Shown here piece after piece: positions 1 through 55,735 of a stretch of 64,000 nucleotides of DNA. This DNA is from Myxococcaceae bacterium (GTDB lineage Bacteria > Myxococcota > Myxococcia > Myxococcales > Myxococcaceae). Every line of letters begins with the position of its first letter. Within the stretch, counting starts at the first letter, position 1. Location: positions 11,278-75,277 of the forward strand of contig DATHBR010000035.1 in the NCBI GenBank assembly GCA_035296065.1, given 5' to 3'. Below the pieces are notes generated by a model. The model made no database searches. It worked only from the letters and a program-made list of their open reading frames with translations, and was not told the DNA's origin. The translations under genes were made by a program, and so were the position numbers.

Positions 1-475
1 CCCGCACCCGAGGCACTGTCACCAACCGCCGCAGCTTGAGTGTCTGGTCGCGCAGCACTCGCTCTACATCTGCGGCAGGCAGGCCCGTTACCACCACGGG
101 CGCCAGGGACTGACTGACGATTTCCTGCACGGCCCAGACCAGATCGAGGCGGCGCTCGAGGCGCTCCTCGATCTGCTGGATCATGCGTTCTGCAAGCCGC
201 CTGACGGCCTCGCCGTCCGACAGGCGGCGCATCTGTGCGTGCCACGCTGCCCGCACGTTCTTCCACGAGACAGGTTCACCCTTGCGGCCCCTCAGCAGAT
301 CCTCGAGCTTGTCCGGAAGCGTCTGATCCGCAAAGTCCAGGGTGTGAATCTTCTGTGCTGCCTCGGGCTCGAACACGCCCAACTGGCCCTCTCTAATCCA
401 GAAGACGCCCCCTTCTGCCTGGCTCCGGGTGCGCATCTCGCGAGCGAAGTCACTCTCCTCGAGTTCGGTAGCCAT
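1..475 (-). CDS. Cytochrome P450, second paralog (N-terminal ~158 aa in window; C-terminal part lies beyond the left edge)
   Basis: Hand-translated from the ATG at 473-475 on the minus strand (not in the ORF track because it runs off the window). The product begins MATELEESDFAREMRTRSQAEGGVFWIREGQLGVFEPEAAQKI. This aligns with the N-terminus of the P450 at 685-1821 (VEFEADPLRFLDQAVQNARDAFWLPGRRLCLVDPEASKAV). A GAGGA-like RBS lies upstream. Confidence 0.5.
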   Translation of the reverse strand, partial: MATELEESDFAREMRTRSQAEGGVFWIREGQLGVFEPEAAQKIHTLDFADQTLPDKLEDLLRGRKGEPVSWKNVRAAWHAQMRRLSDGEAVRRLAERMIQQIEERLERRLDLVWAVQEIVSQSLAPVVVTGLPAADVERVLRDQTLKLRRLVTVPRVR

Positions 476-533
476 ACGTCCTCTGTCCTGCGGGATGGAG
501 GCGGGAGTACCCCGCCCTCACCCATATGTGCTG

Positions 534-623
534 TTACAGATTCTTGTAGTTGAACCAGTACATCTTATTGCCCCCGGGACGAATCGCGAGCGCGGCCATG
601 ACGGCGCGGATCATCTTCTTCAT
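534..623 (-). CDS. Small 29-aa ORF MKKMIRAVMAALAIRPGGNKMYWFNYKNL, candidate RiPP precursor peptide with an aromatic core
   Basis: Strong SD (GGGAGGTG) 7 nt upstream of the ATG at 621-623, and a TAA stop at 534-536. It lies 58 nt upstream of a P450 start and immediately downstream of a paralogous P450. It has a hydrophobic leader and a Y-W-F-N-Y aromatic C-terminus. It was missed by the ORF track because of the size cutoff. Confidence 0.5.
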   Translation of the reverse strand: MKKMIRAVMAALAIRPGGNKMYWFNYKNL

Positions 624-684
624 GTGAGTCACCTCCCTTCCGTTCATGTGTTTCAGTTGTTTCACTGTTTCAACAGTATCACGT

Positions 685-1821
685 TTACTGAGAAAATGGG
701 GAGACCCTATTCATCACGAATTTCGGGGGTGCCAGCGCGGCGGCCACACAGGGGCGCGTGTCGTGAGGGGTAACCCTGAGCTGATGGCCCTCCAGCAGCA
801 GCCGCAGAATGTCTTCGACCAGCTCCAGCGCCAGCAGTGACGCGGGGCAGGTGTGCGGGCCCCAGCCAAAGGGCAGGAACGCCTGAGGATTCTTGAGGGT
901 GGCCCACCGCTCGGGCCGGAACCGGGCCGGCTCGTCCCAGTTGTTCGCGCTGCGCTGCATCGCGTACGGACAGACCACCACGGTGTCCCGAGGCGTGACG
1001 GCGATGCCGGCCACCTCGTGGTTCTTCGCGGGCCTGGCGCCCAGGAACCACGCCACCGGCCACAGCCGCAGCGCCTCGCGCACCACCCAGCCCGGTTGGG
1101 CGTCGGTGGGCGGATGGGTGCCCAACAGGTACACCGACCAGCCCAACAGCAACCCCATCGAGCCCACCACGGCGAACACGAACGACAGGAACACCTCCAC
1201 CAGATCCGCCGCCGGCGCGCCAGGCTCCGCCCCGCTGATCACCACGTCGAGCAGATCCGCGGGCTGGGTGATGCCCCGCGCGCGCCTCCGGGCGATCTCC
1301 TGCTTCAGCTCGCGCCCCACCCGGAAGCGGAACAGCGCGCGGCTGAGAAAGGAGTAGCGCTGCTTGGCTCCGGCGAGCACTCCGCGCCGGACCACTTGCT
1401 CCAACGTGTCGCGCAGCCGGGCCGGGCTGTCGGGCGCGAGCAGCACGTTGCCCAGGTGCCGGTACATGAGCCAGTTGCCCGCATCGGGCCACTCACTGGG
1501 CTGCTCCAGCACCTGTCCCACCGAGCTGGCCAACCTGCTGCCCTGCGCGTCCACGTAGTCGCGCAGCAGCGCGCGGCCCGCTCTGGCAATGCGCACCTGG
1601 GCCTCACGCGGACCGAACAGGCCGCGCCGGGTGTGGAAGAAGTCCCCGTGCTCCTCGTAGAGCCCCTCGCCGTTGGCCAGCACCGCCTTGGAGGCCTCGG
1701 GATCCACCAGGCACAGCCTGCGCCCCGGCAGCCAGAAGGCATCGCGCGCGTTCTGCACCGCCTGATCAAGGAAGCGCAGCGGGTCGGCCTCGAACTCGAC
1801 TGTGGGCTCTTGCGCGGCCAA
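685..1821 (-). CDS. Cytochrome P450
   Basis: Heme-thiolate loop FLPFGWGPHTCPA near the C-terminus and overall P450 length. Preferred start is the TTG at 1819-1821, preceded by AAGGAGG with 8-nt spacing, giving MAAQEPTVEFEADP, which aligns with the start of the paralog at 1-475. The upstream-most alternative is the TTG at 1911. Confidence 0.85.
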   Translation of the reverse strand: MAAQEPTVEFEADPLRFLDQAVQNARDAFWLPGRRLCLVDPEASKAVLANGEGLYEEHGDFFHTRRGLFGPREAQVRIARAGRALLRDYVDAQGSRLASSVGQVLEQPSEWPDAGNWLMYRHLGNVLLAPDSPARLRDTLEQVVRRGVLAGAKQRYSFLSRALFRFRVGRELKQEIARRRARGITQPADLLDVVISGAEPGAPAADLVEVFLSFVFAVVGSMGLLLGWSVYLLGTHPPTDAQPGWVVREALRLWPVAWFLGARPAKNHEVAGIAVTPRDTVVVCPYAMQRSANNWDEPARFRPERWATLKNPQAFLPFGWGPHTCPASLLALELVEDILRLLLEGHQLRVTPHDTRPCVAAALAPPKFVMNRVSPFSQ

Positions 1822-2030
1822 GGGGCACCCCTCCTTAAGGGGTTTCTCCGTCAGTAACGAGGACCACTCATTAACCGCTATCTCCGTTACGCCCGCTAGT
1901 ACTGCAAACAACGTGACAAGGGTCCAATCGCTGCTTTCTTGCCCAGTAAAACAGGTTTAAGCCTTGTTTCAGGTATGAATGAAGCCCTTAGTGTTTCATT
2001 TATGGGACCCAGGTTTTCGATTCCGGGAAA

Positions 2031-2070
2031 ATGAATACGTGAGCAATTGAATGAATACGTGAGCATTTGC
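2031..2070. promoter_or_regulatory. 20-bp tandem direct repeat (ATGAATACGTGAGCAATTGA / ATGAATACGTGAGCATTTGC) inside a ~200-bp AT-rich intergenic region upstream of the P450-peptide-P450 genes
   Basis: Seen directly in the sequence. The 1912-2110 region is far more AT-rich than the surrounding ~70% GC DNA. I infer a candidate operator or promoter. Confidence 0.4.
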
Positions 2071-2110
2071 TGGAGCCTTCGCACACGCTGCTCTGGAGTG
2101 GGGCCAAAGA

Positions 2111-2518
2111 CTACGGGCTGGGCTCCCACCAGGCGTGGAAGTGCACGTCCAGAGCAGGTGCCGCATAGCCGGTGGGAAGCTTTCCGAAGGGGGCCGCCTT
2201 CTTCACCGCCGCCAGCGCCGCCTCGTCCCACGTCTTCGAGCCCGACGAGGTGGTGAGCACCGCGCCCAGCAGTTGGCCATCCTTGCCCACGGTGATCTGC
2301 ACCACCGCGCGATGGCCCGGCTTGGGAGCATGTCTGGCCGCTGGCTGCCGGTACTGCTTGGCCACGCGCTCGAAGAACTTCTTCTGGTAGCTGGCGTCCG
2401 TGAGGGTGGCCTGGAAGAACATGTTCAGCTGCGCGCGCCCTCCCGCGGCCCGGGCCACCGGGGACACGGCGAGCGACAACGCGACAAAGGCGAGCACGAG
2501 GAGATGGAGGCGGGACAT
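2111..2518 (-). CDS. TonB C-terminal domain protein with signal peptide (136 aa)
   Basis: Internal start MSRLHLLVLAFVALSLAVSPVARA is a signal peptide. The C-terminus has the pattern [44 protein letters not shown], typical of the TonB C-terminal fold. The longer ORF (to 2890) would overlap the kinase gene. Confidence 0.6.
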   Translation of the reverse strand: MSRLHLLVLAFVALSLAVSPVARAAGGRAQLNMFFQATLTDASYQKKFFERVAKQYRQPAARHAPKPGHRAVVQITVGKDGQLLGAVLTTSSGSKTWDEAALAAVKKAAPFGKLPTGYAAPALDVHFHAWWEPSP

Positions 2519-2579
2519 GGGCCCAGCTAGATTGCCCCAACCACCACCTCGAGCGCGAGGGACTGGGAACGGGGGGCAA

Positions 2580-4160
2580 GTGCCTACGGCGGGCGGACCA
2601 TTCATCCTGGCCATCGATCTCGGTACCTCGGCCGTCAAGCTGGCAGCCATTGGCCTGCGTGGCTCCATCGTCGCCAGCCAGGTCGAGCCCACCCAGCTGT
2701 CCCTGCTGCCCAACGGCGGCGCCGAGCAGGATCCCGAGGACTGGTGGGCCGCCATCGTCCGGGGCACCCGGAAGCTGCTGGGCAGCGGCGCGGTGGCCGC
2801 CGGGGACTTCATTGGCGTCAACTGCAGCGCCCAGTGGGCCGGCACCGTCGCCGTGGACGAGCAGGGCCGCCCGCTGCGCCCCGCCATCATCTGGATGGAC
2901 TCGCGCGGGGCTTCTCACGTGCGGCGCGCCGCCCATGGCCTGCTGCCCATCGAGGGCTATGGCCTGCGCAAGCTGATGACGTGGATCCGGCTCACCGGCG
3001 GCGCGCCCAGCATGTCCGGCAAGGACTCGGTGGGCCACATCCTGTACCTTAAGCAGGCGCTGCCGGACATCTACCACGCCACCTACAAATTCCTCGAGCC
3101 CAAGGACTGGCTCAACCTGAAGCTGACGGGCCGGTTCGCCGCCTCGTATGACTCGATCAACGTGCACTGGGTCACCGACAACCGGGACCTGTCCCGGGTG
3201 CGCTACGACGAGCGGCTGCTGCGCATCTCCGGGCTGCCGCGCGAGAAGCTGCCAGAGCTGGTGCCCCCCGCCACCGTGCTGGGCCCGCTGAGCCCCGAGG
3301 CCGCGCGGGTGCTGGGCCTGGGCGAGCATGTGCAGGTGGCCACCGGCAGCCCGGACATCCTCGCCGGCGCGGTGGGCTCGGGCGCGGTGCGCGACTTCGA
3401 GGCTCACCTCTGTATTGGCACCTCGGCGTGGCTCAGCTGCCATGTGCCCTTCAAGAAGACCGACCTGCTGCACCAGATGGGCACCATGCCCTCGGCGCTG
3501 CCGGGCCGCTACCTGCTCGTCAACGAGCAGGACTCGGCGGGCGTGTGCCTCACCTCGCTCAAGAACCTGCTCTTCGGAGCGCCTGACGCCAGCGCTCCGC
3601 CGGACGTCTTCGAGCTCATGGAGCGCGAGGCCGAGCGCGTGCCCGCCGGCAGCGAGCAGCTCATCTTCATGCCGTGGCTCAATGGCGAGCGCTCCCCCAT
3701 CGAGGACCGGCTGACGGGGGGCGGGTTCTTCAACCAGACGCTGCAGACAACGCGGGGACACCTGGTGCGCGCGGTGCTCGAGGGCGTGGCCTACAACGCC
3801 CGCTGGCTGCTCAAGTACGTGGAGCCCCTCATCGGCCGGAAGCTGGAGGGCATCCGGCTGATTGGCGGCGGCGCCCGCTCGAAGCTGTGGTGTCAGATCC
3901 TCGCCGACGTGCTGGACCGGCCCATTCACCAGGTGGACGAGCCGGTGATGGCCAACGCCCGGGGCGCCGCGTTCCAGGCGGGCCTGGCCCTGGGGCGCCT
4001 GACGGTGAGCGAGATCTCCGGGCTGGTCCCCATCGCCCACACCTACTCTCCCAACCCCCAGCACCGCGGGCTCTACGATGAGCTGTTCGGCGAGTTCCTG
4101 AACCTCTACAAGAGCAACAAGGCCATCTTCGCGCGGCTCAACCGGGCCCGCGGCACCTGA
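2580..4160 (+). CDS. FGGY-family carbohydrate kinase (xylulokinase-like)
   Basis: N-terminal [12 protein letters not shown] motif, ~527 aa, with FGGY N and C domains. Start is placed at the in-frame GTG at 2580, 9 aa before the IDLGTS motif. The ORF track extends it to 2400. Confidence 0.85.
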
Positions 4161-4200
4161 AGCCCGGCGCACCCGCGCGTCCGCCATTAGGAAGGAAGCC

Positions 4201-5721
4201 ATGGCGCTGCCTGATCTCGACCTGCTGAACCACCTTCCCCCCCGACTGCTCGCGATAGCCGAGCGCTACCTCAAGGCGATTCCCGGTGTGCGCAGCCGCC
4301 TGGACCAGGAGACCGGCTCGCTGCTCGCCGACCTGGAGAGCAGCCTCAAGCCCTACCGCGAGAAGGTGCCCACCTTCGACCGGCTGCCCGCGCAGGGCCG
4401 CCCCCGCGACGAGGTGCTCCGCGAGCTGGCGCACCTGGAGTCCCACGAGCAGGACAAGTGGCGCCAGGGGCGCGTGTCCGGCGCCGTGTACCACGGGGCC
4501 GAGGACCACATCGACTTCGTCAACGAGGTGTACGCGCTGCACTCGCAGAGCAACCCCCTGCACGCGGACCTGTGGCCCAGCGCCACCAAGTTCGAGGCCG
4601 AGGTGGTGGCGATGACCGCCAACATGCTCGGCGCCACCGAGGCCACCGCCGGCAAGCCCGCCGAGGAGCACATCTGCGGCTCGCTCTCCTCGGGCGGCAC
4701 CGAGAGCATCATGCTGGCCATGAAGACGTACCGGGACTGGGCCCGCGCCACCCGGCGCATCACCCGGCCGGAGATGATCGCCCCGGCCAGCGCGCACCCG
4801 GCGTTCGACAAGGCCGCGCACTACTTCGGCATCAAGATGGTGCGCGTGCCCGTGGCCCCGGACTACCGCGCGGACGTGGCCGCCACGCGCAAGGCCATCA
4901 CCCGCAACACCATCGTGCTGGTGGGCTCGGCGCCGTCGTTCCCCCATGGCGTCATTGATCCCATCGAAGAGCTGTCGGAGCTGGCGCGCAAGCGCGGCCT
5001 GGGGTTCCACACCGACGCGTGCCTGGGGGGCTTCGTGCTGCCGTGGGCCAGGAGGCTGGGTTACCCGGTGCCGCCGTTCGACTTCCGGCTGCCCGGGGTG
5101 ACGACGATGTCCGCGGACACCCACAAGTTCGGCTACGCCGCCAAGGGCACCTCGGTGGTGCTGTACCGGGGCACGGAGCTGCGCTCGCACCAGTACTTCA
5201 CCGCCACCGAGTGGCCCGGCGGCATCTACTTCTCTCCCACCTTCTCGGGCAGCCGGCCCGGGGGGCTCATCGCCGCCGCCTGGGCCACCCTGGTGACGAT
5301 GGGCGAAGAGGGCTACCTGGAGGCCTCGCGCCGCATCCTCGAGACGGCCACCGCCATCAAGCGCGGCATCCAGGCGATGCCGGACCTGTACGTGCTGGGC
5401 GATCCCCTGTTCGTCATCGCGTTCGCCTCGCGCACGGTGGACATCTTCAAGGTGATGGAGCGCATGAGCGCCCTTGGGTGGAGCCTCAACGGGCTGCACA
5501 AGCCCTCGGCAGTTCACCTGTGCGTGACATTGCGACACGCACAACCCGGGGTGGCGGACAAGTTCCTGGAGGATCTCCGGGCGGCGGTGGAGCATGTGCG
5601 TGCCCACCCGAGCGAGAAAGGGACGATGGCCCCCGTCTATGGCATGGCTGCCACGGTGCCCTTCCGGGGTCTGTTGAGCGATCTGCTCAAGAAGTACATG
5701 GACCTGCTCTATAAAGTCTAA
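4201..5721 (+). CDS. PLP-dependent group II decarboxylase-fold enzyme, sphingosine-1-phosphate lyase-like
   Basis: 506 aa. Resembles S1P lyase / glutamate decarboxylase family proteins across its full length (N-terminal region ...[32 protein letters not shown]...; I infer the PLP lysine lies in the FGYAAKG region). AGGAAGGA RBS before the ATG at 4201. Confidence 0.85.
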
Positions 5722-5723
5722 CT

Positions 5724-7466
5724 GTGCTCGATCTCCTCTCCCTGGCGAGGGCGGCTCGCGATCTGTCCCGCGAGCAGACCCTCGGTGAACTTCACCAGAC
5801 GATCCTGCGTCTCGTCCGGGAGAGCACGGGAGCCCGGTATACCGCGCTGCTGAGCCTCCACGAGGGCCAGGAGTGGGAAGTCCTTTGCCAGTTGGAGGAC
5901 GCCCCGCGCACCCCCGCGGCGCTGCCCGTGGGCGTGCTGGAGCAGGCCCGCACCACCCAGGTGCCCGTGGTGCAGGCCGAGGCGCAGTGCCATCCCCTGG
6001 TTCATCGCGGCCGTTCGCATGGGCTGCTCTACCTGGAGCGGCCCACGGGCAGCGCGCCCCTGGAGGAGAGGCGTCAGGCGGTGCTGGAGCTGCTGATCAA
6101 CCAGGCCTCGCTCGTGCTGGACAATGCCTACCTGCGTCAGCACGCGACCGCGCACCGGTTGTCCGAGGAGCGCTCGCGCCGCGAGACGCTGGTCGCCAAG
6201 TACCAGCTCCAGGAGCTCATCGAGCACTCCCCCGCCGCCATCTATGTGAAGGATAGCGAGGGCCGCTACCGCGTCATCAACAGCCGCTTCGAGTCCGCCT
6301 ACGGTATCGCTCGCGAGCAGATCCTGGGCCGCACGGACCTGGAGCTGTCGGAGTCCGAGCACGCCCGGCAGCTGATGGAGAATGATCAGCGCGTCCTGGC
6401 CAGCGGCCTCACCTCTCAGTTCGAGGAGAGCCTGGCGGTGCGGGGGGAGCTGCGCACGTACATCTCGGTGAAGTTTCCCCTGCGCTCGGAGGATGGGAGC
6501 ACTCACTCCGTCTGCGGCATCTCCACGGACATCACCGATCGCAAGCGGGCCGAGCAGGCGCTGCAGCAGGCCAATGAGCAGCTGGAGCAGCGGGTGTCCG
6601 AGCGCACCACGCAGCTGCACTCGGCGCAGAAGGAGCTGCTGGATCGCGCCCGGCACGCGGGCATGGCGGAGATCGCCAGCAGCATCCTGCACAACCTGGG
6701 CAATGCGCTCACCGGCATCACCGTGAGCAGCGCGCTGCTGCGCGAGCGCGTTCAGGGGCTGCCCATCGGCTCACTGGAGCGGCTGGCCACGCTGATGGAC
6801 CGCTCGCCCGAGGCGCTGGGCGCGTTCCTGGCGCACGACGAGAAGGGCCGGCACGTGCCGGAGTTCCTCAAGAAGCTGCGCGCGCGGTTCGCCGAGGAGC
6901 GGCAGCTGCTGCTCGAGGAGTGCGCGGCGATGGCGGGCAAGGTCGAGCGCGCCAACAGCGTGATCGCCGCGCAGCAGACGTATGCGCGCAACCGGATCAC
7001 GCTGCGCGAGACGCTGCGGCTCAGTGAGCTGGCCGAGGACGCGCTGCGCCTGGCGGGGATCTCCGAGGGGTTCGACGAAGTCATCCACCGTGAGTACGGC
7101 CCGGAGGAGCCGGGGCTGTACGAGCGCCACGTCATCATGCAGATCCTCGTGAACCTGATCGCCAACGCGAAGAACGCGGTGCGCGAGCGGGGGCAGGGGC
7201 CTGCGGCGCGCATCACCCTGACGGTGCACCAGGACGAGAACCGGACGTCGGTGACGGTGAGCGACAACGGCATCGGGTTCGACGAGCGCGTCAAGGCGCG
7301 CCTGTTCACCTATGGGTTCACCACCCGGCCCAAGGCGCACGGCTTCGGGCTGCACAGCGCCGCGCTGAGCGCGCAGTCGCTGGGTGGGCACATCGACGCG
7401 CACAGTGACGGGCCCGGCAAGGGCGCGCGCTTCGAGCTCATCCTTCCGAGGACCCGGGCGGAGTAG
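5724..7466 (+). CDS. Sensor histidine kinase (GAF - PAS - HisKA - HATPase)
   Basis: N-terminal GAF-like region, PAS (IEHSPAAIYVKDSEGRYRVINSRFESAYGI), H-box (MAEIASSILHNLGNAL), and ATPase G-boxes (GIGFDE, GFGLHSA). Confidence 0.9.
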   Translation: MLDLLSLARAARDLSREQTLGELHQTILRLVRESTGARYTALLSLHEGQEWEVLCQLEDAPRTPAALPVGVLEQARTTQVPVVQAEAQCHPLVHRGRSHGLLYLERPTGSAPLEERRQAVLELLINQASLVLDNAYLRQHATAHRLSEERSRRETLVAKYQLQELIEHSPAAIYVKDSEGRYRVINSRFESAYGIAREQILGRTDLELSESEHARQLMENDQRVLASGLTSQFEESLAVRGELRTYISVKFPLRSEDGSTHSVCGISTDITDRKRAEQALQQANEQLEQRVSERTTQLHSAQKELLDRARHAGMAEIASSILHNLGNALTGITVSSALLRERVQGLPIGSLERLATLMDRSPEALGAFLAHDEKGRHVPEFLKKLRARFAEERQLLLEECAAMAGKVERANSVIAAQQTYARNRITLRETLRLSELAEDALRLAGISEGFDEVIHREYGPEEPGLYERHVIMQILVNLIANAKNAVRERGQGPAARITLTVHQDENRTSVTVSDNGIGFDERVKARLFTYGFTTRPKAHGFGLHSAALSAQSLGGHIDAHSDGPGKGARFELILPRTRAE

Positions 7467-7944
7467 CTTCCGGGACTTCCCGCGTCATCTCCACCATCGT
7501 GGGGCGCCAACCGAGCCTCGCGAAGAAGCGCTGCGCTGGCTCGTTCTTCGCCGCGCTCATGAGGATGACGCGGGGAACGCCCAGCTCGGCGAAGCGCTTC
7601 AGCAGCGCCTGGGCCAGCAGCGTCCCCGCGCCCGTGCCCCGCGCGCCCTCGTCCACCCAGATGTCGTGTAGCCCGCCGTGCCGGTCTCTCAGCGTGGCCC
7701 AGTCGCGCGCTTCGACTCGCCCGTAGACGTAGCCAATCACTTCGCCGTCCCGCTCCGCGACCAGCACCACCGCTTCCTTCGCCCGCAGCTCCTTGCCCAG
7801 CCACCAGCGGTAGCCCGACTCCACGTCCTCCGGCAGCATGAAGCGCCGCGCGTCGAAGCCGTGGTGCTGCCTCACCAGCGCGGCGCCCATACGGCCCAGG
7901 GCCTCCGCGTCCGCGGGTCTGGCGGGACGAACCGTGATCGTCAT
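7438..7944 (-). CDS. GNAT family N-acetyltransferase
   Basis: 168 aa with an acetyl-CoA binding motif (RGTGAGTLL) and GNAT fold length. Converges with the kinase with a 29-nt overlap. Confidence 0.85.
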   Translation of the reverse strand: MTITVRPARPADAEALGRMGAALVRQHHGFDARRFMLPEDVESGYRWWLGKELRAKEAVVLVAERDGEVIGYVYGRVEARDWATLRDRHGGLHDIWVDEGARGTGAGTLLAQALLKRFAELGVPRVILMSAAKNEPAQRFFARLGWRPTMVEMTREVPEATPPGSSEG

Positions 7945-7954
7945 GGCCGACGCC

Positions 7955-9592
7955 CTACGCTCGCGAGAACGCCTCGCTCACGATCGCGCGCGCCTCCTCC
8001 ACCACCGCGTCCAGGTGCGCCTTGTCACGGAAGCTCTCCGCGTAGATCTTGTACACGTCCTCCGTGCCCGAAGGCCGTGCCGCGAACCACCCGTTCTCCG
8101 TCACCACCTTCAGCCCGCCGATCTCCGCGTTGTTCCCCGGCGCCTTCGTCAGCCGCTGGGTAATCGGCTCGCCCGCCAACGTGGTGGCCTTCACCGCCTC
8201 CGGCGACAGCTTCTTGAGCACCGCCTTCTGCGCTGACGTCGCCGGCTGATCGATGCGCGTGTACAGCGGCGCGCTGAACCTCGCCGTCAGCTCCGCGTAA
8301 TGCGCTCCCGGATCCTTCCCCGTGCGCGCCAGGATCTCCACCGCCAGCAGATCCAGGATGATGCCGTCCTTGTCCGTGGACCACACCGTGCCATCCCGCC
8401 GCAGGAACGACGCTCCGGCGCTCTCCTCGCCCCCGAACCCCAGCGAGCCGTCCAGCAGCCCGTCCACGAACCACTTGAACCCCACCGGCACTTCCACCAC
8501 CCGGCGGCCCAGATCCTTCGCCACCCGGTCGATCATGCTGCTGCTCACCAGCGTCTTGCCTACCGCCGCCTCCGCCTTCCACCCGGGCCGGTTGCGGAAC
8601 AGGTACGAGATCGCCACCGCCAGGTAGTGGTTCGGGTTCATCAACCCCACGCTGCGCGTGACGATGCCGTGGCGATCCGAGTCCGTGTCATTGCCGAACG
8701 CGATGTCGTACTTGTCTTTGAGCGCCACCAGGCTCGCCATGGCGTACGGCGACGAGCAGTCCATGCGGATCTTCCCGTCATGGTCCAGCGTCATGAACCG
8801 GAACGTCGGATCCACCTTCGGGTTCACCACCTGCAGGTTCAGCCCGTAGCGCTCCGCGATGGGCTTCCAGTAGTCCAGGTTCGAGCCGCCCAGCGGATCC
8901 GCGCCGATGGACAGCTTCGCCCCCCGGATGACCTCCAGGTCCACCACGTTGCCCAGATCCGCCACGTACGGCGTGATGAAGTCATACGTGCGCAGGTGCA
9001 ACGCGGCCCGCGCCTTCTCGTACGCCAGCCGCTCCACGCCCTTGTTGCCACCGCCGAGCAATTCGTTGGCGCGCTTCTCGATCCACGCGGTGATCTTCGT
9101 GTCCGCCGGGCCGCCGTTGGGCGGGTTGTACTTGATGCCTCCGTCCTCGGGCGGGTTGTGCGAGGGGGTGATCACCACCCCGTCCGCCAGCCCCGTGCTC
9201 TTGCCCCGGTTGTACGTGAGGATCGCGTGCGAGATGACCGGCGTGGGCGTGGCCCCGTCCGTGTAGCGCACCTGCACCCCGTTGGCCGCCAGCACCTCCA
9301 GCACCGTGCGCTGCGCCGGCTCGGACAGCGCGTGCGTGTCCATGCCCAGGAACAGCGGGCCGTCGATGCGCTCCTGCTTGCGGTACTCGCAGACGGCCTG
9401 CGTCACCGCGAGGATGTGCGCCTCGTTGAAGCTGCGCCGCGCCGCCGAGCCCCGGTGGCCCGAGGTGCCGAACGCGACACGCTGCTCGGGCTCCCGGACG
9501 TCGGGTTGCTCCGAGTAGTACTGCGTACGCAGCGTCTCGGGGTTGATGAGGAAGGAGTCAGGCGGGGGCTTGCCAGCGAGAGGATGGGGCAC
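7955..9592 (-). CDS. pgm: Phosphoglucomutase, alpha-D-glucose phosphate-specific
   Basis: GTSGHRG active-site serine loop. The N-terminus ([15 protein letters not shown]) aligns with E. coli Pgm. 545 aa, GTG start. Confidence 0.9.
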
Positions 9593-22735: not shown

Positions 22736-24178
22736 TTAGCGCGGCTGCCGCCGCTTGAAGCGCAGGCGCACTCCCTCGGGCTGCACGGTGAACGCGTTGA
22801 CTTCGCGCACCGGCGCGGACGGGTCCACCGCCTCCACCTCGAAGTGCCGCAGCACCATGCCAGTGACGAGCGCGCACTCGATGAGCGCCAGGCTGCGCCC
22901 GGGGCACACCCGGCTGCCAGCACCGAAGGGCATCATCAGCCGGGCCGAGTGCGGCAGCGTGTCGGGCGGAGGCTGGGGTAACCAGCGCTCCGGGCGGAAG
23001 CGCTCCGCGTCACCGAAGTAGGCGTTGTCCAGGCACGGCAGCCGGGTGAGCACGATGATGCCGCGGCCCTTCGGCACCGCCACTGCCTCCACCACCGTGT
23101 CCGCATTGGCCTCGAAGTACATCAGCGGCACGGGCGAGCGCAGCCGCAGCGCCTCCTGGGCAACGCCCGCCACATAGTGAAGCTGCTTGAGGTGCGCCAT
23201 CGTGGCAATGGCCTCGGCGCCCAACACCGCGTCCACCTCCTCCCGCGCCCGGGCCTGCACCGCTGGCATCACGCTCAGGAAGTGCAGCATCCAGGTGAGC
23301 GTGTTGGCCGTGGTGTCCTCGCCGGCCAACAGCAGCGTCACCACGTTGGAGTACACCTCCGAATCGGACAACCGCGCCCCACCCTCTTCATCCTGCGCCA
23401 CCAGCATCGCGTCCAGCAGGGTGCGCGGCTTGACGGCCCGCTCGGGCTCGCGCTCCAGCGTGCGGCGCGCCTCATCGATGATCTCCAGGAGCACCTTGCG
23501 CGTGGCGGCCAGGGCCTGATCCACCCGCCGGGCGCTGGGCAGAAGCTTCCAGTAGGGGAACGGCGCCACCACCCGCTGTTGAATCGCCGGGAAGATGACT
23601 TCCAGGTGGCGCTGCAGAGCGTCCGGGCCTTTCAGCTGCGTGTCGATATCCTTGCCGAAGGCCACGATGGAGGTGACGTCCACCGTGTAGCGCATCAGCA
23701 TGGAGAGCATGTCCACGGAGCTGCTGTCCTGGGCGGCGCGCTCGAGCAGGCCCTGCAGCCGTTGAGTCAACGTGACCAGCGCGGGGTAGAAAGTCTCCAG
23801 GTGCGCGGCCTGAAAGCCGGGGTTGAGCAGCTTGCGCTGGCGACGCCAGTTCTCCCCCTCGGCGCCGAAGACGCCCAGCACGCCCATGTCCGCCATGGTC
23901 GCTTCGATGCTCCGGATGCGCCGGAAGGCCGCCGGCCGGTCCACCAGTACCTTGCGGATCGCCTCGGGGTTGGAGAGGACGAGCGTGGGACTGGGGCCGA
24001 GGTTGCACCGATAGACCGGACCGTAGCGCCGCGCCCAATCCTCGAGCGTCAGGTGAATCGTCTCAGGCCGAATCGCCAGGGCATTGCCCAGCAGAGGCAG
24101 TGGACGCGGCCCCGGGAGGGTCTTCAGCGCGCGGGGCGTAGAGGTGGCTTGGGCAGGGGCAGCAGTGGGTTCCATACG
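22736..24178 (-). CDS. Cytochrome P450
   Basis: FGAGSRVCPGRSLA heme loop and AGEDTT I-helix. Start at internal MEPTAAP (ATG at 24176-24178). Confidence 0.9.
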   Translation of the reverse strand, partial: RMEPTAAPAQATSTPRALKTLPGPRPLPLLGNALAIRPETIHLTLEDWARRYGPVYRCNLGPSPTLVLSNPEAIRKVLVDRPAAFRRIRSIEATMADMGVLGVFGAEGENWRRQRKLLNPGFQAAHLETFYPALVTLTQRLQGLLERAAQDSSSVDMLSMLMRYTVDVTSIVAFGKDIDTQLKGPDALQRHLEVIFPAIQQRVVAPFPYWKLLPSARRVDQALAATRKVLLEIIDEARRTLEREPERAVKPRTLLDAMLVAQDEEGGARLSDSEVYSNVVTLLLAGEDTTANTLTWMLHFLSVMPAVQARAREEVDAVLGAEAIATMAHLKQLHYVAGVAQEALRLRSPVPLMYFEANADTVVEAVAVPKGRGIIVLTRLPCLDNAYFGDAERFRPERWLPQPPPDTLPHSARLMMPFGAGSRVCPGRSLALIECALVTGMVLRHFEVEAVDPSAPVREVNAFTVQPEGVRLRFKRRQPR

Positions 24179-24212
24179 TGCAGAGCTTACCTTCCCTGCC
24201 CACCCCAGGGAC

Positions 24213-26270
24213 CTACCCCCGGGGGCGGCGCAGGCGGGTGAGTGCAAGCAGCAGTAGCAGCGAGCCCCACCCGAGCGCGCTGCCCGGGTGCGCGCCACAG
24301 CCACAGCCCACGTCCTCGGGGGTAGGCAGGGGCTCCACCGTCACGTTGAACTGGCACGTGGACTTGTTGCCCCCCTGGTCCGTGGCGGTGACGGTGACGC
24401 GCGTGCTCTCTCCGGCTGGGAAGAGCGTTCCCTCGGGCGGCTCGTACACCAGGGACACCTGCGAGGCCGTGTCCAGGACCTTGACCTCGGGGTAGTCCAC
24501 CACGGTCCCCTCGGCGCTGGCGGCGTCGACCAACAGGCCGCGGGGACAGGTGAGCGCGGGAGCCGCGGAGTCGCGCATCGTCACCTGGAAGGTGCACACC
24601 GACACATTGCCCGCCTCATCGCGCGCCTGGACGCTCACCGCGGTGCTGCCCACCGGGAAGGCCGTGCCCGGCGGGTGGCTGTACTCGAGCTGGGGCTCGT
24701 CGGTGAGATCGTCCGTGGCGGTCACCGAGTACCGCACGGGCGTGCCGGGGAAGCTCGTCGCCTCGAACACCATGTCCGAGGGACACTCCAGCAGCGGCGG
24801 CTCCCGATCGCACAGATCCACCGACCACAGCGCTTCGCCGGCACTGGGGCTCCAGGCGAAGAAGAAGAGCCTCAAGCCCACGCGCGTCAGGCCGTGCGGA
24901 GCCGAGTTGGCGGGGCCCGGGGCAATGTCCATCACCTGTACGGTGCCCTCCGGCGTCCCATCGCTCTTCCAAAGTTCCTGGCCACTCAACCCGTCACTGG
25001 CCGCGAAGTAGAGCGAGTTGCCCACGCCGCGCAGGTTGGACAGCTCCGCGCCCCCGTCCCCGCGGAAGATGTCCTTGACCAGGTAGGTGCCTGCATCCCC
25101 CTCCCTGCTCACCCACAGCTCGGAGCCTGTGACGGGATCGAACGCCTCGAAGAAGACCTTCTTGCCGGCCGCCGTCAGCTTCTGTCCTCCCTCGAGGTTG
25201 GGCCCGGGGAAGGCGTCACGGATGAGGCCCGTTCCCCCGGGCGTCCCGTCGCTCACCCACAGCTCGCGGCCCGTCTTCCCATCATCCGCGATGAAGTACA
25301 GCCTGCCCTGGGCGATGATCAGCTCCGTGGGCGACGAGTCGGCGAAGCCCTCCCAGATGTCCTTCACCCGGGTGGTGCCCTCGAGCGTCCCGTCGCTCGT
25401 CCACAGCTCGCGTCCCAGCGGCCCGTCATCCGCGGAGAAGTAGAGCCTGCCGTTCATCACCACCGGCGAGCCGGGGGAGGAGCCATTGCGGACCACGGGC
25501 CAGATGTCCTTCACCATCGCGGTGCCCGACGGGGTGCCGTCGCTGCGCCACAGCTCCTCGCCGCGGAAGCCGTCTTCCCCCACGAACAGGACGCTGTCGC
25601 CCAGCGCCCTCATCCGAGAGATGGAGCCGCCGACCTGCCCGGGCAGCACGTCCTTCAGGAACGTCACGCCGCCGTCGGTGCGCTCGTACTTCCACAGCTC
25701 CCTGCCGCTCGTGCCGTCGTTGGCGGCGAAGAAGACCCGGTCACCCGCGATGGTGATCTCCTCCGGGCTCGAGCTGCCCGCCCCCGCGAGCACGTCCGTC
25801 ACCCTCACCGTGCCCTGCTCCGTCCCGTCACTGCGCCACAGCTCTCTTCCGGACGTCCCATCGTTGGCGGCGAAGTAGAGGCCTCCATGGCCCACCACCA
25901 GTTGCTGGATGTCCGAGCCCCCGGGGCCTGGCCGGATGTCCCTCACCCGCTGCGTGCCATCCGGACCGCCGTCGCTGCGCCACAGCTCTCTGCCAGCATC
26001 GTCGCTGCCGACGAAATAGAGCGTCCCGTTGGCGGCCGCCGTGAACCCCGTCACCGTGGGGCCGGCGTCAGGTGCCGGGCCCGCGGGCCGCGGATCCAGG
26101 TCTTTGACGAGCATGGGCGACGAGCACTGGTTGTCCAGGCCCGCGCGCTGGTGTGCTCCCGGCCAATCCCCTTCCATGCCGGACTGTGGGCCGCAGCCCA
26201 TCGTGCCTGCGTAGAAGTACCCGCCCATGCACAGCACGAACACGGCGAGACCAAGGGCCCTGGAACGCAT
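24213..26270 (-). CDS. ELWxxDGT-repeat beta-propeller protein with HYR-like domains and MYXO-CTERM-like sorting tail
   Basis: Repeats of RELW[RKT]SDGT (more than 8). CTFQVTM / STCQFNVTV HYR-like modules. C-terminal GCGCG + hydrophobic + RLRRPRG tail. Signal peptide. Confidence 0.85.
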   Translation of the reverse strand: MRSRALGLAVFVLCMGGYFYAGTMGCGPQSGMEGDWPGAHQRAGLDNQCSSPMLVKDLDPRPAGPAPDAGPTVTGFTAAANGTLYFVGSDDAGRELWRSDGGPDGTQRVRDIRPGPGGSDIQQLVVGHGGLYFAANDGTSGRELWRSDGTEQGTVRVTDVLAGAGSSSPEEITIAGDRVFFAANDGTSGRELWKYERTDGGVTFLKDVLPGQVGGSISRMRALGDSVLFVGEDGFRGEELWRSDGTPSGTAMVKDIWPVVRNGSSPGSPVVMNGRLYFSADDGPLGRELWTSDGTLEGTTRVKDIWEGFADSSPTELIIAQGRLYFIADDGKTGRELWVSDGTPGGTGLIRDAFPGPNLEGGQKLTAAGKKVFFEAFDPVTGSELWVSREGDAGTYLVKDIFRGDGGAELSNLRGVGNSLYFAASDGLSGQELWKSDGTPEGTVQVMDIAPGPANSAPHGLTRVGLRLFFFAWSPSAGEALWSVDLCDREPPLLECPSDMVFEATSFPGTPVRYSVTATDDLTDEPQLEYSHPPGTAFPVGSTAVSVQARDEAGNVSVCTFQVTMRDSAAPALTCPRGLLVDAASAEGTVVDYPEVKVLDTASQVSLVYEPPEGTLFPAGESTRVTVTATDQGGNKSTCQFNVTVEPLPTPEDVGCGCGAHPGSALGWGSLLLLLALTRLRRPRG

Positions 26271-54400: not shown

Positions 54401-55735
54401 TCAAGCCTGGGGGCCTGGCACCACCGGGCCCTCGTAGCGCAGGGGCACTCCGTCCTCCGGGGCCAGGGTGACGTTGCGGCGCACGGGCTTGATGGGCCGA
54501 TCATGCGCCAGCGAGAAGCGGTGGGCCGCCAGCAGCGTGCCCAGCACCACCTTCATCTCGTAGAGCGCGAAGGCCGCGCCCAGGCACCGCCGGGCGCCAC
54601 CGCCAAAGGGCAGGTACTCGAAGGGCGAGTACTTGCGCTCCAGGAAGCGCTCGGGCCGGAAGCGCTCCGGCTCCGGGAAGGTGGTGGGGTTGTGGTGGGC
54701 CAGGGTGATGGCCGCCATCACCCCCATGCCCTCGGGCAGCGGGTGCCCGCGCACCGTGAGCGGCGCGCGCAGCTTGCGCGTGACGAGCCCCACCACCGGG
54801 TACAGCCGCAGCGTCTCGTCGCACACCGCCGACAGGTAGGGCAGCTTCGCCAACGCCTCGGGCTCGGGCCGGGGCCCCAGCGTGCTCAGCTCCTGCTCCA
54901 GCCGCTGCTTCGCCTCTGGTGTGCGCAAAAGCCAGTACAGCGCCCACGCCATGCCGATGGCCGTCGTCTCGTGGCCCGCGATGAGCATCGTCAGCAGCTC
55001 GTCCTTCAGCTCGCGCTCGGACAGCGGCTGGCCCTCCTCGTCCCGCACGGACAGCAGCAGGGTGAGGATGTCCTCCCCTCCCCGGCCGTCCGCGCGTCGG
55101 CGGGCGAGCTGCTCGTTCAGCAGCGCATCGAGCGCCTGGGAGTGCCGCTCGAAGCGGGCCCACGGCCCGATGCCGCCAAACGAGCGCCGCAGCGGCACCA
55201 GCAGCATGAGCAGCGGGGTGTACGCGTCGGCATAGACCCCGATCGCCTCCATGAAGCGCCGCACCCGCTCTGGCTCCTCCACGCCGAACACGGCGCGGAT
55301 GATGATCTCCAGGGACATGGCCTGCGTCCGCTGCAGCGCCACCAGCGGCTCGCCCACGCGCAGCCCCTGCACGGCCTCCAGGGCGGCCTGCTGCATCAGC
55401 GTGCCGTAGGCGCGCATCCGCTCGCCATGGAACGACGGCATGAGCAGCCGGCGCTCGCGCTTGTGCCGCTCTCCGGAGAGCAGCAGCATGGAGTTGGCGC
55501 CCACCACCGGCTCGAGCACCACGCGCGACAGCGGCTCGAAGATGGACGGGTCCGCGGAGAAGATCTCCCGGATGCCGTCCGGCTCCCCGGTGGCCACGAT
55601 GGTGCCCATGGGCAGCTTGGCGATGAAGGGATCTCCGTAGCGCTGGGAGTTCTCGCGAAAGAACACCGCGGGGCTCTTCATGAAGCTCAGCGTCTGCAGC
55701 GGAGAGAAGCGCGGTCCTCGAAGTGGCTCGGGCAT
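54401..55735 (-). CDS. Cytochrome P450
   Basis: FGGGARRCLGAAFA heme loop. AGHETT I-helix. Confidence 0.9.
   Translation of the reverse strand: MPEPLRGPRFSPLQTLSFMKSPAVFFRENSQRYGDPFIAKLPMGTIVATGEPDGIREIFSADPSIFEPLSRVVLEPVVGANSMLLLSGERHKRERRLLMPSFHGERMRAYGTLMQQAALEAVQGLRVGEPLVALQRTQAMSLEIIIRAVFGVEEPERVRRFMEAIGVYADAYTPLLMLLVPLRRSFGGIGPWARFERHSQALDALLNEQLARRRADGRGGEDILTLLLSVRDEEGQPLSERELKDELLTMLIAGHETTAIGMAWALYWLLRTPEAKQRLEQELSTLGPRPEPEALAKLPYLSAVCDETLRLYPVVGLVTRKLRAPLTVRGHPLPEGMGVMAAITLAHHNPTTFPEPERFRPERFLERKYSPFEYLPFGGGARRCLGAAFALYEMKVVLGTLLAAHRFSLAHDRPIKPVRRNVTLAPEDGVPLRYEGPVVPGPQA

Follow-up and report, generated by a model that had tools for sequence, protein, structure and literature searches.

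The left end of the window analysed here, a 64,000-nucleotide stretch of contig DATHBR010000035.1 from a Myxococcaceae bacterium, probably carries a minimal gpe-type cassette for a peptide that is made on ribosomes and modified after translation (RiPP), in which a GpeC-like cytochrome P450 (P450) would couple Trp23 to Tyr26 of a short precursor and a GpeB-like P450 would perform a second oxidation. We assign this reading a probability of about 80%, based on homology and on analogy with characterized systems. The cassette consists of three co-directional minus-strand genes in window 1–1911, in the order GpeC-like P450, 29-amino-acid (aa) precursor, and GpeB-like P450. The GpeC-like gene (P450-2) is situated at 685–1821 and encodes a 378-aa protein from a TTG start, with the Shine–Dalgarno sequence AAGGAGG (1830–1836) 8 nt before the start codon and conserved in the closest relative of the cassette, a syntenic Myxococcaceae metagenome-assembled genome (MAG; locus L004). 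The gpeA-like precursor gene follows at 534–623, 61 nt after the P450-2 stop codon (685–687) and 58 nt before the ATG (475) of the GpeB-like gene (P450-1), whose 5′ part of 158 codons (1–475) runs off the left window edge. The coordinates and sequences of this small open reading frame (ORF) between two P450 genes are as the first-pass annotation had described them. The 378-aa product, the 29-aa ORF, and a complete 409-aa P450 downstream were all called by an independent gene caller on the source contig L001, a 43-kb soil metagenome contig that contains the same cassette and was used for the full P450-1 gene. The name GpeB is our own label, assigned by position, for the second P450 family.

The GpeC-like P450 and its precursor peptide

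When compared with all PDB sequences, P450-2 matched GpeC (9ULW_A) with an E-value of 1.3e-78, residues 5–371 of the query aligning with residues 4–371 of the chain at 38.9% identity over 365 aa, and the next PDB match had an E-value of about 1e-12. P450-2 keeps the haem ligand C325 of GpeC together with seven substrate-pocket residues that were probed there by mutagenesis (H57, D59, F60, R160, F214, A256, and W257), and Pfam PF00067 covers only the C-terminal part of the protein. GpeC, a RiPP P450, links Trp-C7 to Tyr-C3 in the WxxY core of its precursors GpeA1 (...WRWVMYHHM) and GpeA2 (...WFWMLYHHM), yielding a product fragment named 'gpertide' (Liu et al., bioRxiv 10.1101/2024.10.06.616194). 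According to the same preprint, the enzyme requires only the last nine precursor residues, needs an upstream aromatic residue for recognition, and is related to the biarylitide enzyme P450Blt only at the fold level; the clade-1 precursors follow the logo W/Y-x-WxxY-H/N-H/N-I (its Fig. S2), and its supplement reports that GpeC converts YRWYLYHHI. The latter sequence is the nine-residue C-terminus of peptides that we recovered from a Myxococcus locus (L006) and from two acidobacterial loci (L008 and L031). By analogy with GpeC, P450-2 is predicted to be a Trp–Tyr biaryl macrocyclase. The initial proposal of a P450-tailored RiPP locus is thus supported by the GpeC homology and by the conserved precursor, and the match of P450-2 to GpeC provides the link to a peptide-crosslinking clade.

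The precursor ORF extends on the minus strand from the ATG at 623 to the TAA at 534–536 and encodes MKKMIRAVMAALAIRPGGNKMYWFNYKNL, composed of the leader MKKMIRAVMAALAIRPGGNKM-, the core Y22-W23-F24-N25-Y26, and the tail K27-N28-L29. It is W23-F-N-Y26 that forms the operative motif, and not the whole Y-W-F-N-Y stretch. The gene is preceded by the Shine–Dalgarno sequence GGGAGGTG (630–637); the site is strong, and its spacing to the ATG was measured as 6 nt, not 7 as had been reported. Relatives show the same AAGGAGGT-N5/6-ATG arrangement. A 43-aa version of the ORF with a GTG start was rejected, because the conservation of an upstream 'KEV' is accounted for by the Shine–Dalgarno sequence being read in frame.

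A homologous small ORF was present in all 37 related loci examined, so the conservation at related loci on which the first-pass proposal depended was found throughout. Every one of the 42 family peptides, including that of the window (39 tabulated and three read later, two from Thalassomonas and one from Pseudoalteromonas SMS1), carries WxxY at positions −7 to −4 and ends exactly three residues later, and all share the leader M(A/K)KIxRAVMxALxIR; this agrees with the earlier description of the ORF as a precursor whose leader is conserved and whose aromatic core varies. In the close clade, the ORFs beside the P450 encode 28–31 aa with the consensus M(A/K)KIARAVMAALSIRRKD..Y.W..Y(H)(H/Q/N)(I/M/L), and an aromatic residue lies within three positions before the Trp in 39 of the 39 tabulated peptides. 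The window leader MKKMIRAVMAALAIR is homologous to MKKMKNAVMRTLGLR of GpeA2 and MKKMKNAVLRKLGLR of GpeA1, both read from the DNA of the gpe cluster itself (L083), which was recovered through a protein 98% identical to GpeC, and its motif MKKMxxAVMxxLx(I/L)R fits both. Relative to L004, residues 1–16 carry four synonymous substitutions and a single conservative one. The spacer and the two x positions vary, while the Trp, the Tyr, and the KNL tail are unchanged, with synonymous differences in the codons of N28 and L29. This substitution pattern is a sequence signature of purifying selection at the protein level, as in RiPP precursors, and the comparisons together show that the 29-aa ORF is a genuine gene starting at ATG 623.

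It is accordingly hardly credible that the small ORF is a chance ORF, or a regulatory leader ORF of the downstream P450, with the P450s acting on a small molecule. The ORF is at the lower size limit of gene calling, a hairpin follows it as in attenuators, and its GC content of 52% is well under the 69% of the window, although this low value is explained by a core rich in Lys, Asn, Tyr, Phe, and Met codons. Against such an origin stand the retention of leader, WxxY, and three-residue tail in 42 of 42 peptides across five phyla, the variable gene order with two peptide copies in some loci, the purifying selection relative to L004, and the fact that a homologous peptide is a proven GpeC substrate (bioRxiv 10.1101/2024.10.06.616194).

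The cassette shares with the Gpe system a full-length homologous P450 with its pocket residues kept, a homologous leader, a WxxY core with a tail of exactly three residues, the last of them aliphatic, and an adjacent second P450 of the same family. It differs in gene order (C-A-B in the window, in contrast to A1-A2-B-C-ABC exporter in the gpe cluster), in having one precursor copy and no linked exporter, and in its myxobacterial host, the closest named GpeC relatives being gammaproteobacterial. Its core also differs: Tyr stands directly before the Trp, Met occupies −2, and the KNL tail contains no His and was found elsewhere only in L004.

The first-pass annotation had compared the locus with the cittilin and biarylitide pathways, in which case a CitB/BytO-type P450 would crosslink a very short C-terminal core to give a new Y-W-F-N-Y scaffold. 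The general logic is indeed alike, in that a myxobacterium encodes a small precursor with an aromatic core beside a P450, and the cittilin cluster (citA-citB-citC, Myxococcus xanthus) further resembles the window in its precursor of about 27–29 aa, its aromatic crosslinking, and the absence of a protease gene. However, the cittilin precursor has an unrelated leader and ends in Pro-YIYY, a core at the very C-terminus; one P450, CitB, makes both bonds, and the methyltransferase encoded by citC is obligatory. In contrast, the window peptide ends in ...KMYWFNYKNL, with three residues after the core, and no citC-like methyltransferase gene adjoins it, so that cittilin was rejected on the precursor and the gene content. 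The biarylitides (bytA/bytO, P450Blt; myxarylin) follow the same P450-only minimal RiPP logic with an aryl crosslink, but derive from a 5-aa MxYxH precursor with a three-residue ring, and they were rejected since the window precursor has 29 aa with a conserved 20-residue leader. Furthermore, GpeC outranks any other solved relative of P450-2 by about 65 orders of magnitude, no biarylitide P450 occurs among the best 60 of the 150–221 PDB matches of either P450, and the window leader is homologous to that of GpeA. The proposed kinship therefore reduces to an analogy, and membership in either group is very improbable. Nor is the core unlike known ones, as had been suggested, given that WxxY already defines the Gpe family.

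Distribution and co-inheritance of the three-gene unit

A scan of reference genomes with alignment of P450-2 homologues yielded 79 loci. The 37 related loci belong to Myxococcota, Acidobacteriota, Chloroflexota, Actinomycetota, and Gammaproteobacteria, and the carriers include Myxococcus, Corallococcus, Hyalangium, Myxococcaceae MAGs, many Thermoanaerobaculia and other Acidobacteriota, Herpetosiphonaceae, and Actinophytocola; cultured carriers are Corallococcus coralloides, Pyxidicoccus parkwayensis, and Myxococcus sp. RHSTA-1-4. Five loci that at first seemed to be without the small ORF have it upstream of the P450 instead, sometimes in two copies. Further relatives, each with a GpeB-type P450, were recovered from Pseudoalteromonas, Thalassomonas, and Saccharothrix, the Saccharothrix locus carrying one more peptide of the same kind. 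The gpe cluster contains GpeA1 and GpeA2 (leader MKKMxxAVMxxLxxR), a 406-aa P450, GpeC, and an ATP-binding cassette (ABC) exporter.

No WxxY locus lacks either of the two P450s, which bears out the earlier assumption that the two enzymes belong to one unit, and the gene order is C-A-B, A-C-B, or A(-A)-B-C. Within the genome scan, every WxxY-clade locus has an orthologue of P450-1 (47–81% identical) located after the peptide or the GpeC-like gene, and the pairwise identities of the two P450 families correlate with r = 0.96 (31 loci). Judging from these sequences, the trio is orthologous to the three core gpe genes and travels together across five phyla.

Clustering of the neighbouring ORFs of 35 loci revealed no further universally conserved gene. 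Sporadic neighbours are an O-methyltransferase gene (four loci) and an ABC ATPase gene (six loci, the gpe cluster also having an ABC transporter), and neither adjoins the window cassette. The O-methyltransferase genes are all found in acidobacterial cassettes (L010:2801–3808, L019:6308–7324, L021:7568–8626, and L022:3755–4921), with PF00891 confirmed for the first three and the L022 gene assigned by BLAST clustering only. The gene in L019 is situated between two precursor copies, and the cores of these cassettes are of the W-R/I-W-x-x-Y type or Y-R-W-Y-W-Y.

Several MAGs bear two cassettes with different cores (L004 and L058; L018 and L021; L022 and L025); for example, the cores of Myxococcaceae SMAG_U3340 are AYWWAYKNL and YGWYHYRSM. 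The actinomycete cassettes L033 (Actinophytocola MAG) and L086 (Saccharothrix sp. 6-C) encode peptides (...YRWYVYHHI) almost acidobacterial in style. For both P450s, L033 and L086 are each other's closest match, and acidobacterial versions come next, which suggests, at the sequence level, horizontal transfer of the whole three-gene unit. A sister P450 clade from Nonomuraea, Streptosporangium, and one Streptomyces (L034–L057) is about 37% identical to P450-2 and is followed by a 21-aa ORF, M(R/K)KLLRRVTGRR(I/V)NRQAW(F/Y/H)IW, that ends directly in WxxW. These peptides have no tail and no upstream aromatic residue, and their loci are without a second P450; the clade has the look of a distinct RiPP family with one P450, possibly of the atropopeptide kind.

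Regarding the published substrates, the GpeA1 35-mer and GpeA2 27-mer of the preprint (gpe cluster, L083:3121–3285 and L083:3541–3705) begin at internal Met codons, and the leader conserved in the family starts at MKKMKNAV, three residues (GpeA1) or eight residues (GpeA2) further upstream. The published substrates may, from this comparison, lack part of the native leader, and if so, this could bear on the preprint's 'leader-independent' conclusion and on the activity of the second P450.

The GpeB-like P450 and the proposed maturation pathway

The full P450-1 (409 aa, L001:11347–12576) matches Pfam PF00067, and the 158-aa fragment encoded in the window gave no Pfam match. An NCBI entry from a Myxococcaceae MAG is 100% identical to the 409-aa protein, which shares 37% identity (E 2e-85) with the 406-aa P450 located immediately before GpeC in the gpe cluster, a second P450 that goes unmentioned in the text and supplement of the preprint (bioRxiv 10.1101/2024.10.06.616194). 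The GpeB family keeps the ExxR motif and the haem loop FGWxPxxCxG (C358 in P450-1), and the AlphaFold model of P450-1 has a P450 fold with a predicted local distance difference test score (pLDDT) of 83, so that P450-1 appears to be an intact haem-thiolate enzyme. The two P450s had been described as paralogues with N-termini that align with each other. This is overstated: the N-termini share 27% identity over 37 aa with an E-value of 0.049, and at full length only the C-terminal 128 aa of the haem-binding region align (24% identity, E 4e-10), from which we conclude that P450-1 and P450-2 are members of two different P450 families and not close paralogues.

Following the GpeC precedent, the GpeC-like P450 would bind the C-terminal nine or so residues of the precursor, MYWFNYKNL, and oxidatively couple C7 of Trp23 to C3 of Tyr26 with the loss of two hydrogens, producing a four-residue biaryl macrocycle over W-F-N-Y. 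The GpeB-like P450 would then oxidise the same peptide a second time, as its strict co-occurrence and the precedent of other two-P450 clusters suggest, and the earlier idea that two P450s mean two modifications is plausible. The cassette has no genes for leader removal, export, or redox partners, which would have to be supplied from elsewhere.

The best mechanistic precedent for the GpeB-like enzyme is, by analogy, offered by the atropopeptide clusters tsu/oli (TsuB/C, OliB/C) and lau (LauB1/B2), which likewise combine one short precursor with two different P450s. In these two-P450 RiPP clusters, the extra enzyme (TsuC/OliC, LauB2) adds a further aryl C–C or ether bridge. The atropopeptides nevertheless differ from the window in their C-terminal WxxW/WYxWY core, their KSLK leader motif, and their occurrence in actinomycete clusters; an atropopeptide assignment was rejected on the precursor motifs, the window peptide being without KSLK and having a WxxY core plus tail. 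The I-helix of the GpeB family has an invariant TAIAGPPGAA, without the usual acid–alcohol pair. In P450s generally, this pair helps to activate O2 for hydroxylation and is often missing from phenol-coupling enzymes, so the GpeB I-helix is consistent, by analogy, with coupling chemistry. Our best guess is that the second step would be another aryl crosslink, through the always-present aromatic residue just upstream of the Trp (Tyr22 here). Tentatively, and at less than even odds, the GpeB-type P450 could thus be a second macrocyclase linking the Tyr22-type aromatic to the Trp–Tyr ring, with the native products of the family being bicyclic. If this were true, the published monocyclic 'gpertide' would be a half-matured intermediate, and the YWFNY-KNL core, with Tyr beside Trp and no His, would give a ring system not yet described.

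Alternatively, the GpeB-like P450 could hydroxylate or oxidise the peptide (Trp, Tyr, or Asn hydroxylation, or oxidative processing of the tail) or act on the leader or tail without being a macrocyclase. Strict co-occurrence places the enzyme in the pathway and is silent on how it acts, and the O-methyltransferase in some variant cassettes would fit a new or free phenolic hydroxyl. The Foldseek search of the P450-1 model against the PDB recovered only generic P450 neighbours (CYP17A1, CYP11B, CYP97, and CYP184A1; template modelling score about 0.7, 15–20% identity), which leaves room for such chemistry. However, GPPGAA replaces the acid–alcohol pair in the I-helix and the known second RiPP P450s (TsuC/OliC, LauB2) form aryl C–C or ether bridges, and we regard this alternative as unlikely.

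Several points weigh against the assignment as a whole, that is, against a gpe-type cassette in which Trp23 and Tyr26 are coupled and the GpeB-like enzyme acts second. The window locus is known here from its genes alone, and its sequence cannot tell a C7–C3 link from a C6–C3 or a C–N link. P450-2 differs from GpeC at three pocket positions (R152K, Y163F, and N258F). The window core M-Y-WFNY-K-N-L departs from the family logo W/Y-x-WxxY-H/N-H/N-I, its aromatic residue being at −1 and not −2, with Met at −2 and Lys as the first tail residue; Tyr at −1 recurs in L004, L015, and L017, and the KNL tail recurs only in L004. GpeC rejected some variant cores, W1F and YIWIMYNNI (bioRxiv 10.1101/2024.10.06.616194), and the substrate fit proposed here consequently rests on co-evolution of the P450 and its peptide. 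Because GpeC itself needs the upstream aromatic residue, the conservation of this residue alone is no pointer to the second P450, and a function for any GpeB-type enzyme was not found in the searchable literature.

Surroundings of the cassette and its place in the Gpe family

Between the precursor stop codon and the GpeB-like gene, folding predicts a GC-rich stem-loop (494–522, minus strand) without a T-tract. Of the 26 loci folded, nearly all are predicted to form a perfect or near-perfect stem of 10–15 bp in this position, and the consensus over 21 loci has 12 pairs, seven of them with compensatory changes; in the window alone the z-score is a modest −1.3. A canonical terminator was rejected, as the T-tract is absent. 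Based on its sequence conservation, the hairpin probably stabilises a short precursor transcript or partly attenuates read-through, which would yield more precursor than downstream enzyme. Scans of 1–2500 for sigma-70 promoters and intrinsic terminators found none, and an Rfam scan of 1–8000 identified no RNA family.

Two further candidate regulatory elements are located upstream of the cassette. The motif CTTGTCACGTTGTTTGCA (1903–1920, minus strand) lies 82–99 nt upstream of the GpeC-like start and reads CTTGTCACGCCGTTTGCA in L004; its spacing fits a sigma-54 −24/−12 element (TGGCAC-N5-TTGCA), but GT replaces GG, and from its sequence it is a possible promoter. The AT-richer intergenic region bears at 2030–2069 a perfect-to-95% tandem direct repeat of 20 nt, AATGAATACGTGAGCA(A/T)TTG, which is present in the identical contigs L002 and L003 and absent from the syntenic L004, and which could be a regulator binding site or a lineage-specific duplication.

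A TonB_C gene and a convergent patatin gene border the cassette, here and in L004 alike. Elsewhere in the window, two more P450 genes on the minus strand (22739–24304 and 54404–55735) have strong full-length Pfam matches (E 3e-86 and 3e-78, respectively) but share only about 27% identity with the cassette P450s and probably have no connection with the cassette. A window-wide scan identified the ORF at 534 as the sole Gpe-like peptide ORF, and the window thus contains a single cassette.

The window cassette belongs to the known Gpe family and opens no new class, and the authors of the preprint had already mined 'Gpe-like' precursors (bioRxiv 10.1101/2024.10.06.616194). The searchable literature, in which this preprint was the only pertinent item found, has nothing on the role of the GpeB-type enzyme, the mature product of any member, or the breadth of the three-gene unit across phyla. 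There is demand for P450 peptide macrocyclases that can serve as biocatalysts in making biaryl-bridged cyclic peptides, and GpeC has been put forward as a general enzyme of this kind; the comparisons made here present the GpeC system as a conserved three-gene unit composed of a precursor, a GpeC-type P450, and a GpeB-type P450. Myxococcota and Acidobacteriota from soil carry this unit widely, and it is also found in Chloroflexota, Actinomycetota, and marine Gammaproteobacteria. To this family the window contributes a distinct core variant, and its relatives in cultured myxobacteria make genetics possible.

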